Positions 1 to 56,456 of a DNA stretch of 64,000 bases are shown one piece after another. The DNA comes from a virus: positions 14,784 to 78,783 of the IMG/VR virus record IMGVR_UViG_3300035338_000016, one strand, 5' to 3'. A program made the translations under genes and the position numbers. Numbering within the stretch: the stretch's first letter is position 1; every line of letters begins with the position of its first letter. Under the pieces are notes generated by a model that was given only the letters and a program-made list of their open reading frames with translations, was not told where the DNA came from and did not search any database.

Positions 1-17
1 TTACGTCTTTTGGATCG

Positions 18-431
18 TTAATCATATTCACATTCTCCAATCTCACAAATATCTACTCTAACAATATAAGTATCACGTTCAATAAAACGAATATCATCGC
101 ATGTTTCTTTTGCATACTTATATGAATGATATAATTTAGCTTTCCTTATTTGTTTATCCCATTTGTTATATCCAATAAAGTAAAACCCGTCTCTGTCTTT
201 AACAGCAAATGTATTATCTCTTATTGTTTCTGCCTTTGGTTGGTTTAAGTTTCTACCACATATCGGGCAAAACTTCCATTTAGTTTCATAGTCTACACAA
301 ATATTATTACTATCTTCTCCATTACACCAATCTACTAGAATAGGATAATCATCTTCCCATGTGTCAGATATATCCTCTTTCTCGTCTTTATGTACGCAGG
401 TATTGCATCTTACTTTGCAAAAATCACACAA
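18..431 (-). CDS. Hypothetical phage protein with Cys motifs (CDFC, FCPICG)
   Basis: 137-aa ORF, TTG start, AAAGGAG SD, zinc-ribbon-like motifs. Confidence 0.6.
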   Translation of the reverse strand: MCDFCKVRCNTCVHKDEKEDISDTWEDDYPILVDWCNGEDSNNICVDYETKWKFCPICGRNLNQPKAETIRDNTFAVKDRDGFYFIGYNKWDKQIRKAKLYHSYKYAKETCDDIRFIERDTYIVRVDICEIGECEYD

Positions 432-608: not shown

Positions 609-3600
609 TTAATTATCCTTTCTTGATATGCATTCATAAATAGCTATAGGAAGCCTGAATAAAATATACAACCACACCAAAGGAAAAAATAGTGAAAAAT
701 AAAATTCTAATATTGGTTCGTCATCTAATCCCATAAATACATGCAGGAACAACTCAGTTGCAAAAGCACCCAAAATATAAATAATTATAAATATCATCGT
801 ACCATCATCTCCTTTCATACCAAATGAATTATTTGTTTCAAGCGTTCTTTCTCTGTTCAATTGCTTTATCTAACTTTCCCTGTACTTGTGCTTGAATTTT
901 ATTACCGAAAAAGACAAATATAAATAGCATGGCAACATTCATAACTGGGATAAAACTATATATGAAAATTTTCAGCCAAGATAAGATAACACCACTTGTA
1001 TCACTTTTAAACGCTATCATTTTTAGTTCTTCTTTATACTTATGTTTCGCTTGATTAATACCACTTAAATTATGTAAAACTAAAATCGCTAATGTTAAAA
1101 TGCTTACTCCTAAATAAATTTTAAAAATCATCTTCTTCGTCATCCTCTTCAGTTTCAACTGGTGTTTCTAGAACCATTCCTAAAATACAACCGACCTCAT
1201 ATGCTAAATTTGATTGACCTGACGCAAAACCATCTTCAAAACAGTCATCATAATTTCCACAAGATCTTTCAGAAGTCCAATTATAGTTGTATGCCTTATA
1301 GTTTTCTCTTACTAAGTTACTTAACTCATTTAAAACTTTTTCAATATTTTTCATTTTAGCTCCTTCTTCAAAAACTTGACTAATAGTTTTAAAAGTGCCA
1401 TCTTCATTTTGAACATCCACATTGAACGTTTCTTTAAAAAACACTTTATATGCTTCCAACTGTTCACCTACGTTGGCGGCAATTTCATAATTAATAATTT
1501 GTGTGGCTTTGTCTAAATTCAAATTTATTCCTCCCTTGAAACTAAAATTTTAACACTAAATAAATTGCTACCGGATAATAAACATAATCTAATATCGTAT
1601 TAAACAGAAAATACATTCTTTTAAACTTAAAATCTTCGGCAATCACAGTATATGGTCAGTGTTTAAAGTATCATACCATGAATAAATTACTGTTAATATT
1701 TGCAACACCGACAATACAATAAAATATGTATAATCATACTTAGTACCTAAATTTACATAAAATAATGCAAAAAGTATTGAAATTAAAAGCATTACAAACT
1801 TTACTACTTCGGGTTTTGGTTTTGGATTTTTAGATAGATATAACTCATTCCTTTCAATAGTTTTCCTGATCTTTTTATCGTATTCTTTCTTGCTAAGTGC
1901 TGATGGAGTTGATTTAATCCTCGTCAATAACAACCCTACTAAAATTACTAATGTAAATATTTTCAATTATTTCCCTCCTGTTTTTGATTGTTAAATTATT
2001 TTTCTTATAAGGTCAAGATTTACATTTTGCTCGATTGTTTCGTCTACTAACTTAAACAGTCCATTGGATAAACTAAGCACAGCACAAGTATTAGTCGTAA
2101 CGTCGTGCCAAGCACAATCATTATTACAAATAGTCTTAATTAAAGGACACCATTTTTTATTTTCACTCATTTACGCATCTCCTTTCAAATCAGAATTTCA
2201 TTTAATCTTTCCATTCAACCATCTCCTGTTTTTCAATCCCCCCCCCTAATAAACCATTCTTTCAACTGTCCTCTTCAAAATAAACTATTTCATTTTCTTT
2301 TAATGGCAACCAACCTTTGATTTTTTCATATACATATTTTGTCATTACTCCGTTAAAATCTTCTCCAAAACAATCTTTATAATCATTTCTTTCAGTCGAA
2401 AGTTTCAAAAACGCAACAATATCAGAAAGAACATTTTCTGAAACAATGTTGTATTCCTCATATATCCATTCAAGGTCATCTCTGTCTAAATAGAATTTTC
2501 TTAGAACAGGATAGCAACTATTCACTTCATCAATCGTTGCTAATTCAAAATCCGTGAAGTACGGATTACTAATATCTCTTATTTTTGTCTTATCTGCTTT
2601 AATTAAATACATATCGTATCCCATAATTCATTCACTCCTTAATCGTTTGAATCCATGATTTCAAATGTTTATTTATTCCTCCCACCAATTAAACCCTTTA
2701 TTTATTTCTCCATAGCTAAATAAAGTTTTAGGAGTAAAACTATCTTCTGCACCAGGACGACAAACATTTTGGTGTACTTTATAACCCAAATCTTTCATTA
2801 CTTGAATATATTCTGGTTTTACTCCAATAAACGCCTTACTCCACTTTCCATGACCACAACAACATCCAGTTGTTTTGATTCCCATTTCCCATAAACTAAC
2901 AACCTCGCCTAATAAACATTTATCAATCGCAACTGTCTTTGCTTCTAATTTACTATTATCTTCCCATGGGGACTTTACTTTATATGGCAACATCATGTTA
3001 TAAGCACAATCGTATGTTCCGAAATCTATTTCGCTGCACCTCATTTTTAATCATTCTCCTTTCTTAACTTCTCCGCACACTTCTGCAAAGCGTACATATT
3101 GATAAAATATCTTTGGTCAATACATCTGCCAGCGTCCCACAAATTACTTTCACATTCTTCATCGAATTCACTAAAATTTGTTCTTCTCAAAAATGCAATC
3201 CATTCATATTCATCTGTATGAGATAGAGCCTCAAATGTAAAATCAATTATATTTATTAAATCGTCAATATTATTTTGTTCACAAAACTCTTCATTTTCAT
3301 AATATTTAAGTAATGGATTAAAACTATTAAATTTACTTTTCAAGAATTCTACAACTTTATCAATCTTCTCTTCTTCAATGTCATAGTAATTTTCTAAGCG
3401 TTCTCTTAGCCACTCATAAATATCATCTTCGCATTTTGTTTCATCATAAAGACGTAAAGCTTCTCGGCTTTCATGACTTAACTTCTCCATCTGATAGCCA
3501 ATATTGTCATAATGCAAATTGTAAACTGTACCCTTCCATGTCATTTGATTAAAGGTCATTGTCCCGTAATCGCCGTAAACGCATAAGAAGTGTCCATCTC

Positions 3601-14584: not shown

Positions 14585-15664
14585 TCATCCATTTGTACCA
14601 ACGTATATTTTTTGTTCCATTAATTTAAGCAAAATATCTTTCCCCATATCGGTAGGAGATGCTTTGTATGGTAATAAATTTCCTGAATCCCATAGCACAG
14701 AAACTCTTACGAATGGACTTAATTTATCAATTATTTTTTCTTTTATGTGAGTTGCCCATTTTTTACATTCATCTGAATCTAAAGATTGATATTGTTTATC
14801 AAGAGCAACTATAACTTCCCTTACACCTAACATTAATATCATTCCTTTTTGAAAATCGGTTAAATTACTTCCACATAAAGCAACTGTAAAATTATCATCT
14901 CCAAACATAGTATCTGTTTGAAATACTGATTTTTCAGCTTCCACTAACATAATTTTCTTTTTTTCTTGAATTGCCGTTAAGTTATGATTTAAGCCAAATA
15001 AATTTTGTCCTAACGAATGATTGTAAAATTGTTTTCCTACTTTAAACGGTGTATATTTGCCAAAAAGTTCAATTTCTTCCTCTATCAAGGATCTTCCTCT
15101 TACTCCAATCAATTGATTATTTATGTCAAAGTGAGGAATTATTATTTTTTGTTGCCATGTGGAATATAAAATTTTGTACTTTTTCATTGTTTCAATTGAA
15201 ATACCTTCGTTAATCCAATCTTCCACATATAACTTTTGAAAAATTCTTAATATAGATTCATTGTATAAAATTAATGGTTTTGTTGTTTTTTCTTTTTTTG
15301 TGTTTCGTTTATACTTTCTAATAAAATCCCAATCTGATATTTGTTCCTGTTTACCAAATCCATATTCACAATTATCAATATTTAATTTTATACAAATCCA
15401 ATTAATAGCTTTTGGGAGTTCTGTAGGTTCATACCCTTTATATCCCATTACTACACCGATAACATCTAATTGTCCACATTCCGAATAGCAATGGAAAGAT
15501 TGAGAGTCTTTATAGTAATATAACTTGGGTTTTAATCCATGATGACATACTGTATCAGTTATCCATTGATCATCATCTTCATAATAGAAGGTTGCCCCCA
15601 TCTCTAATAACAATTTTCTTACGTCATCTTCAGAAAGCTTTTCTTTCAATTCTTGGGCGGTCAT
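14585..15664 (-). CDS. DNA primase (Zn-binding plus TOPRIM; YorJ-like)
   Basis: TVCHH...KLYYY...FHCYSECG zinc domain, IIIPHFD, LVEAEKS, IVALDK. Confidence 0.9.
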   Translation of the reverse strand: MTAQELKEKLSEDDVRKLLLEMGATFYYEDDDQWITDTVCHHGLKPKLYYYKDSQSFHCYSECGQLDVIGVVMGYKGYEPTELPKAINWICIKLNIDNCEYGFGKQEQISDWDFIRKYKRNTKKEKTTKPLILYNESILRIFQKLYVEDWINEGISIETMKKYKILYSTWQQKIIIPHFDINNQLIGVRGRSLIEEEIELFGKYTPFKVGKQFYNHSLGQNLFGLNHNLTAIQEKKKIMLVEAEKSVFQTDTMFGDDNFTVALCGSNLTDFQKGMILMLGVREVIVALDKQYQSLDSDECKKWATHIKEKIIDKLSPFVRVSVLWDSGNLLPYKASPTDMGKDILLKLMEQKIYVGTNG

Positions 15665-54793: not shown

Positions 54794-55231
54794 TCATTCC
54801 ATAATATCCTTATAAGCTTCTACAATTGAGCAACTACAATCCTCCATTCTTTCTTTGCACTCTTCCACCATATCTAATACAAACTGATTTTCTTCATCCT
54901 CTGTAATGTCTCTTTTGTGCTCTGCTTCAAAGTCCATGATTAATTGATCTAAATAACTATCCTTAATCATTAGACTTCTTACTATTGTAAAATCTGTCGA
55001 CATTTTAAATCCTCCTTTTTAAATTGCGGCAATGAAAACCGCCTTTTATTTGCTTCTTTTATTTAATTCTCTTTCAATTTCTTCTCTTGTTTCTTTATTA
55101 AGTGTTACAAGAAAACCTTCTTTGTCATATACACCGTCTTTATATGGTGTAATATCTGTTATTCCAGATACTAACAATTCAAGGATTTCTCCTGTTTCTT
55201 CGTTAACTTTATACACGTTATATTTTGCCAT
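54794..55231 (-). other. Two small hypothetical CDS (54794-55003; 55046-55231)
   Basis: SD-anchored ATGs. Confidence 0.65.
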
Positions 55232-55445: not shown

Positions 55446-55770
55446 AAAAAAGCATACCATTGTTAATTGATATGCTTCAAAGTTGTTACTATTTAATTTT
55501 TTACTAACCATTGATAAGCGGACAAGTCAACGCTTAAAGTGGTTTACAGTATTCTCTTTTTACGATTCTTGAACAGAATCAACAAGCTAGGAGTTTCACC
55601 CTCTTGTATGCCACCGTAACGACATAACCATATTTTTAGTAAGGCTGTATATTGGTAACAGCTATCCTTATAATGAAAAGGTTATTTGATATTCAATTGA
55701 CACCTACCACTCGTTAGAATGGTAACGCTTGCACCCTAAGTCCTATTTATAGTCGGTGCAACGACTTTGT
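55446..55770 (-). ncRNA. Putative structured RNA (six or more hairpins) ending in an intrinsic terminator
   Basis: Stems at 55729-61, 55705-24, 55629-85, 55587-608, 55565-81 and 55505-46; terminator at 55446-77. Confidence 0.5.
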
Positions 55771-55772
55771 GA

Positions 55773-55928
55773 TTATTCACAGTGGTAAGTATTTGTTTGA
55801 CCAAAAATTGTGGTAGATACCGTATGAGGATTGTCGATAGAAACTTGAATGTTGTATGTGATGTAAAAATAAGAGCCAATACATCCTATAATGAAAGAAA
55901 GTAATGCAGTGATGAATAATTTTGTCAT
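55773..55928 (-). CDS. 51-aa single-TM peptide, first gene of the leftward operon
   Basis: AAGGAG SD before ATG 55928; the tracked longer ORF runs through the promoter. Confidence 0.7.
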   Translation of the reverse strand: MTKLFITALLSFIIGCIGSYFYITYNIQVSIDNPHTVSTTIFGQTNTYHCE

Positions 55929-56064
55929 TGTAAACACTCCTTTATATTGTCTGATTTGATATTCTACTTTTAGATGAAAATTTGCTACCACTTTGTAACG
56001 CTTGACAAAATCTTGTGTTGTGTGGTAAACTGTAATACTAAGTTGCTGTCTTAACCACAAACTA

Positions 56065-56199
56065 AGTATACCATAGGTTAACCAATATATCAATAGGTTA
56101 ACCAACATTTTATCACTTTTAGCATTATGCATAATTAATATTGATTAATAGGTTAACCGATTGTTTATTTGTTACAAAAGTATAATATTTGGGTTAACC
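56065..56199. promoter_or_regulatory. Leftward promoter with four GGTTAACC operators
   Basis: TTGATA (56088-93)-17-TG-TATACT (56065-70); GGTTAACC at 56076, 56096, 56151, 56192. Confidence 0.8.
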
Positions 56200-56243: not shown

Positions 56244-56456
56244 ATGGCGATGACAGAAGCGCAGAAAGAAGCCGACAAGAGATATAGGGAAAAGAATAAA
56301 CCTTTGACCTTTGCTATTGCATATAAAGCGATTGATATTGTAGATGGATTTAGACTAAAGAAATACTTAGAGCAAACTGGACAAAGTGCAAATAGCTATA
56401 TTAAAGAATTGATTAAGCAAGATTTAGATAGAAAAGAGTTTGATATAAATGATTAG
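56244..56456 (+). CDS. Ribbon-helix-helix-like regulator
   Basis: MTEAQKEADKRYREKN...GQSANSYIKELIKQDL. Confidence 0.7.
   Translation: MAMTEAQKEADKRYREKNKPLTFAIAYKAIDIVDGFRLKKYLEQTGQSANSYIKELIKQDLDRKEFDIND

Follow-up and report, generated by a model that had tools for sequence, protein, structure and literature searches.

Phage HDV-like theta ribozymes reportedly adjoin tRNAs and trim non-coding RNAs. Most self-cleaving ribozymes of bacteria and phages are functional orphans; small ribozymes have been suggested to cut polycistronic messages, and their purpose is still undefined (2019 review, PMC6765202). Harris et al. 2015 (PMC4604425) defined pistol ribozymes by three stems, by a pseudoknot that joins the P1 loop to the P2-P3 junction, by a fixed junction length and by ten nucleotides that are highly conserved. 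RNAs of a different kind, processive antiterminators, also bear on the locus described here: in conAn2, 20-bp inverted repeats flank a centre of ~240 bp, and a 16-bp block is ~75% GC (Miguel-Arribas et al., PMC8191782).

The locus lies in a 64,000-nt stretch of viral DNA (the window; positions 14,784 to 78,783 of IMG/VR record IMGVR_UViG_3300035338_000016) and has likenesses to both kinds of element. As with the phage theta ribozymes and their tRNAs, a small self-cleaving ribozyme lies right next to a structured non-coding RNA, and its cut would define one end of that RNA. Unlike the theta ribozymes, this one is a pistol, which cuts near its own 3' end and would trim the 5' end of its partner; the partner is not a tRNA (ARAGORN finds neither tRNA nor tmRNA in it) but an RNA of no known family. 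As with conAn2, put and EAR, a structured RNA of a few hundred nucleotides comes after the first small gene in a long operon that contains terminators and lies on a Gram-positive mobile element; here, however, a self-cleaving ribozyme stands directly upstream of it and a strong terminator begins 16 nt past its end. An earlier note on this DNA had described the region as one 325-nt structured non-coding RNA. The region is indeed structured, lies on the gene strand and ends in a terminator, but it breaks up into three separate parts: it is probably a composite of a pistol ribozyme, a separate conserved RNA domain and a terminator (Table 1), in which the pistol would free an RNA of ~260 nt.

The pistol ribozyme and its transcript

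An Infernal scan of the whole window against Rfam 15, a kind of check that the earlier note had proposed, returns a single family above threshold, the pistol ribozyme (RF02679), with 57.6 bits against a gathering score of 34.5 (E = 7e-08); the match spans model positions 1-68 of 68 and is not truncated. P1, P2 and P3 stand in canonical order, and the AUAAAUA linker, UUAG, the AAGCGU core and the 2-nt junction G64-U65 agree with the pistol consensus. P2 has Watson-Crick pairs at three of its four positions; three of four also pair in most of the viral-contig pistols sampled below. The pseudoknot is not scored by the covariance model and thus lends independent support to the identification. Since the GU junction is the cleavage site of the class, the predicted cut is placed within it. 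By every sequence-level criterion of membership, the first 69 nt read as a canonical pistol with the full architecture of the class (RF02679, PMC4604425), and nothing in the ribozyme differs from it. The six stems listed in the earlier note, and the terminator, are all present on the minus strand, where the first stem is the pistol pseudoknot and the second (TACCATTC-UAAC-GAGTGGTA, 55725-55704) is P3. Self-cleavage had not been among the three hypotheses of that note: a cis-acting processive antiterminator, a type I toxin 3' UTR or an independent phage non-coding RNA.

Table 1. Features of the locus in window coordinates, with the counterparts of the orphan domain and its helices in the two homologous loci, L011 and L019.
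Feature	Window coordinates	Strand	Window sequence or basis	L011	L019
Promoter-like site TTGATA-17-TATACT with TG	56065..56093	-	heads leftward transcript; 10/12 matches, upstream TG		
51-aa ORF, hydrophobic N-terminus	55773..55928	-	AAAGGAG RBS 8 nt before ATG		
Pistol self-cleaving ribozyme	55698..55766	-	Rfam RF02679, full-length 1-68		
P1	55766-63 with 55754-51	-	AGUC/GACU		
Pseudoknot	55761-55755 with 55735-55729	-	UUGCACC/GGUGCAA, 7 Watson-Crick pairs		
P2	55743-40 with 55701-698	-	GGAC/GUCA, 3 Watson-Crick pairs and G.A		
P3	55725-18 with 55711-04	-	UUACCAUU/AGUGGUAG, 8 pairs including 2 G-U		
Predicted pistol cut	between G55703 and U55702	-	GU junction		
Orphan conserved structured RNA domain	55494..55702	-	homologs in L011 and L019	3794-4035	5056-5297
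H2	55662-58 with 55648-44	-	GCUGU/ACAGC	ACGAG/CUCGU	AGUAGU/ACUACU
H3		-	UAUGUC/GGCAUA	AUGC/GCAU	AUGC/GCAU
H4, outer stem		-	CAAG/CUUG	CCUA/UAGG	CCUA/UAGG
H4, enclosed hairpin	55600-55590	-	GG-UGAAACU-CC		
H5	55580-75 with 55569-64	-	GAUUCU/AGAAUC	UAUAUCU/AGAUAUA	GUAUCU/AGAUAU
H6, inner stem	55536-31 with 55520-15	-	UAAGCG/CGCUUA	UAACAAA/UUUGUUA	UAACG/CGUUA
H6, invariant loop	55530-21	-	UUGACUUGUC		
Px	55619-13 with 55550-44	-	UUACGGU/ACUGUAA	UUAUGCU/AGCAUAA	one mismatch
Intrinsic terminator	55449..55478	-	11-pair stem, 8-nt loop, then UUUUUUAUUUU (U-tract)		

The promoter-like site is surrounded by GGTTAACC operator repeats (repeat family D1), and a transcript that starts from it would have a leader of ~130 nt. 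Around this leftward promoter lie three copies of ATAGGTTAACC (window 56069-56168), accompanied by an HTH_26 gene (Pfam E = 4e-11) and by a small divergent ORF at 56244-56456 without a Pfam family; this arrangement had already been noted as a switch. The region does adjoin a small membrane-peptide gene, as had been claimed: the 51-aa ORF, whose stop codon stands 6 nt before the ribozyme. Its product falls into no Pfam or PHROG family and has a single homolog (P0001, 88% identity); homologs of the 51-aa ORF and of a 61-aa ORF were found on short contigs. The region was also said to hold no ORF, and the ORF list contains none above 35 aa on the minus strand between the 51-aa ORF and position 55231. 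The next credible gene lies ~470 nt downstream of the predicted cut, and the downstream block includes an ArdA gene (54678-54118, Pfam E = 2e-38).

The 5' UTR of the peptide gene (55954-56004) holds short exact repeats that are collinear with a stretch running from the 3' half of the pistol into the beginning of the domain (55684-55731): on the minus strand, the 10-nt CAAGCGUUAC and the 11-nt GAAUAUCAAAU both reappear 270-273 nt away, and AGUGGUAG is repeated as well. These repeats could be what is left of a decayed second pistol, the two copies flanking the small ORF as a cassette; Rfam finds no second pistol in this 5' UTR.

The orphan domain and its homologs

If the ribozyme itself is ordinary, what is new about this locus? 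The new part is the orphan domain, to which stems 3-6 of the earlier note belong (55702-55494), and its exact junction with the cut site. Two homologs of the domain define its borders. One contig was found through a relative of the nearby FtsK-like gene (L003; L011 is the same contig), and its non-coding stretch matches window positions 55600-55490 with 77% identity over 115 nt (BLAST). The other homolog, L019, comes from a Haloplasmataceae genome bin, was retrieved with a pattern of shared motifs and matches the window with 90% identity over 67 nt (BLAST). L011 and L019 share 242-249 nt at 77.5% identity and no other homology. Their common block starts with ACAACUU, which aligns to the window's GUCAAUUG directly after the pistol cut, and ends at the invariant tail UAGUAAAAAAUUA; both ends are sharp, and the 5' border of conservation lies no more than 3 nt from the ribozyme cut site. 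In all three loci the domain is co-directional with the flanking genes, and in each it follows a different ORF: the 51-aa hydrophobic peptide in the window, a soluble 85-aa product in L011 and a soluble 65-aa product in L019. Neither a pistol nor any other Rfam family is found in L003, L011 or L019, and the other pistol-bearing viral loci of the filtered set (see below) lack the domain. Thus, the pistol and the orphan domain are independent modules joined here; their pairing could also be a chance juxtaposition and not a functional unit.

The domain is rare: three copies were found across all collections searched. The region has no blastn match among GenBank phages and PLSDB plasmids; exact-pattern scans of IMG/VR with the domain motifs and with the window's exact pistol return only L011 and chance matches in coding sequence; scans of metagenomes for the domain return nothing; and a scan of genome contigs returns L019 and three chance matches. 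BLAST over ~400 genomes of the class to which L019 belongs gives only short chance matches, the best two of them in coding sequence, and an nhmmer profile of the domain finds no additional copy in the loci collected. A search with the ArdA neighbor protein yields no relatives. The FtsK-like protein leads to five loci at 28-58% identity, none of which has a pistol and one of which (L003) has the domain.

Beside the domain, 2-3 kb of L011 (~1500-3460) and of L019 (2457-5359) are almost devoid of ORFs of at least 50 aa; in L019 this stretch holds only the 65-aa ORF and an overlapping 54-aa ORF on the opposite strand. The two stretches have no mutual homology outside the domain and may be non-coding. 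Just 5' of the domain, in the position that the pistol occupies in the window, both loci can be folded into a three-way junction (L011 3735-3793, L019 5005-5055) made of a closing stem (GGGCU/AGUCC in one locus, GCCGU/ACGGC in the other) and two hairpins and followed by CAUU(A/C)AG; it could be a processing signal or a ribozyme of an unrecognised kind. In these non-homologous 5' flanks, a search for a variant ribozyme gave no Rfam match, and neither a pistol nor a hammerhead core could be fitted by eye.

The domain has six helices. Each of its three copies can form all eight helix segments, which together count 116 Watson-Crick pairs, 3 G-U pairs and 4 mismatches. H3 makes a short hairpin, and within H4 lies the hairpin GG-UGARAMU-CC, the T-loop-like element of the earlier note; loop positions 1 (U) and 5 (A) are fixed, which suggests that the loop is indeed T-loop-like. 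H6 consists of an outer ACCA/UGGU stem and an inner stem that caps an invariant 10-nt loop. Px is a long-range helix between the H3 loop and the stretch just before H6; it covaries across ~70 nt and, together with H3, probably forms a pseudoknot of the H type, in which the first loop is 1 nt and the third is long and A-rich. At the level of sequence, the A-rich tail, the T-loop-like hairpin and the 10-nt apical loop are conserved.

How firm are these helices? In a set of three copies, too few for a formal test of covariation, and with helices defined while all three were in view, 36 helix pairs were aligned between the window and L011: 19 are the same in both, 2 differ on one side, 15 differ on both and none is broken. 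Fifteen compensated pairs with none broken strongly support the pairing. In several helices, MAFFT alignments shift the window by one base; folds of single sequences independently recover H2, H4, H5 and H6. The domain is assigned to the minus strand on the basis of its co-directional flanking genes, the strand of the pistol and the terminator, and the wobble pairs, a thin line of evidence with three G-U against one A-C.

The putative released RNA and rival readings

What would the ribozyme do here? Most likely, it separates the peptide mRNA from a structured RNA of ~260 nt. The pistol would fold and cut the early leftward transcript at G55703/U55702, by internal transesterification, soon after it has been transcribed. 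The peptide mRNA would then end in the folded ribozyme with a 2',3'-cyclic phosphate, while the downstream product would carry a 5'-hydroxyl and start no more than 3 nt from the conserved ~210-nt domain. The terminator would end most transcripts, giving a discrete RNA of ~260 nt; in transcripts that read through, the domain would form the 5' leader of the gene block that includes ArdA. From the sequence we infer that cleavage takes place in vivo and that the 260-nt RNA accumulates. RNAs with 5'-OH ends are substrates of RNase J1 in Bacillus, as work on glmS reportedly showed, and the released RNA might be unstable if it is such a substrate. It would presumably act as a folded RNA (protein-binding, catalytic or cis-regulatory) and not by simple antisense pairing. 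Of the earlier hypotheses, an independent phage non-coding RNA is the best fit to the remaining ~210 nt of the region.

Judged by its sequence, the orphan domain lies outside every described family: its best Rfam match, SpF39, scores 30.8 bits against a gathering score of 60 (E = 0.14) and falls mostly over the terminator. Tentatively, the 210-245-nt domain may represent a new family of ornate phage RNA, with ribozyme cleavage making its mature 5' end; it might work as an RNA-based antiterminator of a new kind, or else as a new RNA with a catalytic or a protein-scaffolding role. If this were true, pistols would gain a concrete job, the 5'-end maturation of a functional non-coding RNA that heads an early anti-restriction operon. 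The coincidence of a predicted cut site with the 5' border of an independently conserved structured RNA offers a simple, testable case for a ribozyme role.

Some other roles of the domain were considered and set aside. Action of the invariant loop as an antisense in trans is unsupported: its complement is not more frequent in the window than expected by chance. An ORF begins in the invariant tail (AUG GUU AGU AAA AAA UUA) and, depending on the copy, extends over 35, 8 or at least 32 codons; it has no RBS, and it is invariant even at third codon positions, which points to a constraint on the RNA. Two complementarities link the 5' part of the region to the terminator. The 5' end that cleavage would make, UGUCAAUUGA (55693-55702), is complementary at 9 of 10 positions to 55461-55470, where the loop of the terminator meets its 5' arm; the pistol P1 has on its 5' side (55760-55769) a complementarity, likewise at 9 of 10 positions, to 55478-55487, immediately ahead of the terminator. 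In L011 and L019 the 5'-3' complementarities are short and their registers are shifted. All of this may be a matter of chance in AU-rich sequence.

Could the domain be a regulatory leader that acts in cis, either a processive antiterminator like HK022 put, EAR and conAn2 or an attenuator that senses a ligand or a factor? It would then set read-through of the 55449 terminator into the ArdA block, and the pistol would do no more than detach its 5' end from the translated peptide mRNA. Known RNA antiterminators, too, are structured and reside in operon leaders (PMC8191782). Past the terminator and ahead of the following genes, no candidate for a minus-strand promoter is convincing, the best being a 9/12 match at 55369-55340, so ArdA and its neighbors probably depend on read-through; a further terminator-like site lies on the same strand at 52422-52402. 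The domain is found within co-directional operons in all three loci and the terminator is not conserved among them: L019 has none within 62 nt past the domain, and in L011 only a U-poor hairpin follows it. Still, we regard a cis-acting leader as unlikely. Within the region, every Rfam family other than the pistol is worse than E = 0.1, and the hallmarks of conAn2 are missing: instead of a flanking inverted repeat of 20 bp, the longest such repeats measure 10 nt (90%) and 14 nt (86%), and instead of a 75%-GC block, the most GC-rich 16-mer reaches 62.5% and is the H6 stem. In the position of ConAn1 stands the 51-aa hydrophobic peptide, which matches no Pfam or PHROG family, and the proteins encoded upstream differ in the three loci. 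Nor is any alternative pairing between the domain and the terminator conserved across them.

SPbeta encodes type I toxin-antitoxin pairs, bsrG/SR4 and yonT/SR6, and the 51-aa peptide, small and hydrophobic, is encoded in an SPbeta-like prophage; the region could be a type I toxin 3' UTR, as the earlier note had proposed, targeted by a convergent antisense antitoxin RNA from the only promoter-like site on the plus strand (55511-55540). This is barely credible. The promoter-like site is the complement of H6, and its spacer measures 18, 20 and 16 nt in the three copies, the mark of a variable stem and not of a conserved antisense promoter; the ORFs that precede the domain in L011 and L019 encode soluble, non-membrane products; the peptide has no family match; and a ribozyme, not an antisense duplex, accounts for the first 69 nt. 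It is also very unlikely that the pistol and the terminator are the only functional parts, with the stretch between them either a conserved remnant or a site used at the level of DNA, such as a protein-binding hairpin or a recombination site, and without a role as RNA. The rarity of the domain would fit such a reading, and so would its folding energy. The expectation that the region folds better than shuffled controls is borne out for the whole 336 nt, which are modestly unusual (z = -2.58), but not for the 214 nt after the ribozyme, which fold no better than shuffled sequence (z = -0.68), and the plus strand folds slightly better (z = -1.84). As energy alone is insufficient, the case for structure rests on the Rfam match for the first 69 nt and on the compensatory changes in the homologs for the rest. 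These changes (15 two-sided, 0 broken, in helices of varying length) would be hard to explain without selection for pairing, Px covaries over ~70 nt, and the conserved block is sharp at both ends; they argue against a remnant or a DNA site.

Pistols on other viral contigs

Where do pistols stand in other viral genomes? A scan of IMG/VR with a degenerate core pattern, filtered for the pseudoknot, P3 and P2, gave a sample of 68 pistols (loci numbered within L026-L143), with the window, which fits the pattern, included in addition as a control. The ribozyme starts no more than 30 nt past a same-strand stop codon in 53 of the 68; the median gap between stop codon and ribozyme is 3 nt (6 nt in the window), and the next ORF begins at a median of 48 nt downstream. 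The pistol of the window belongs to a phage of a low-GC Gram-positive bacterium and, like most phage pistols, stands just after a stop codon; unlike the others in the sample, it is followed not by the next ORF but by a long conserved non-coding domain and a terminator. The window pistol thus has the usual position on its upstream side and an unusual one on its downstream side. Such a placement after stop codons is in line with a role of small ribozymes in cutting polycistronic messages, as has been suggested (PMC6765202), and the count itself is a small descriptive result in support of cistron separation. In some IMG/VR contigs, pistol cores occur in tandem, with two to four per contig spaced 370-710 nt apart (L133 at 7107 and 7670; L139 at 3377 and 3834; L140 within 322-1900), as arrays of small units separated by ribozymes.
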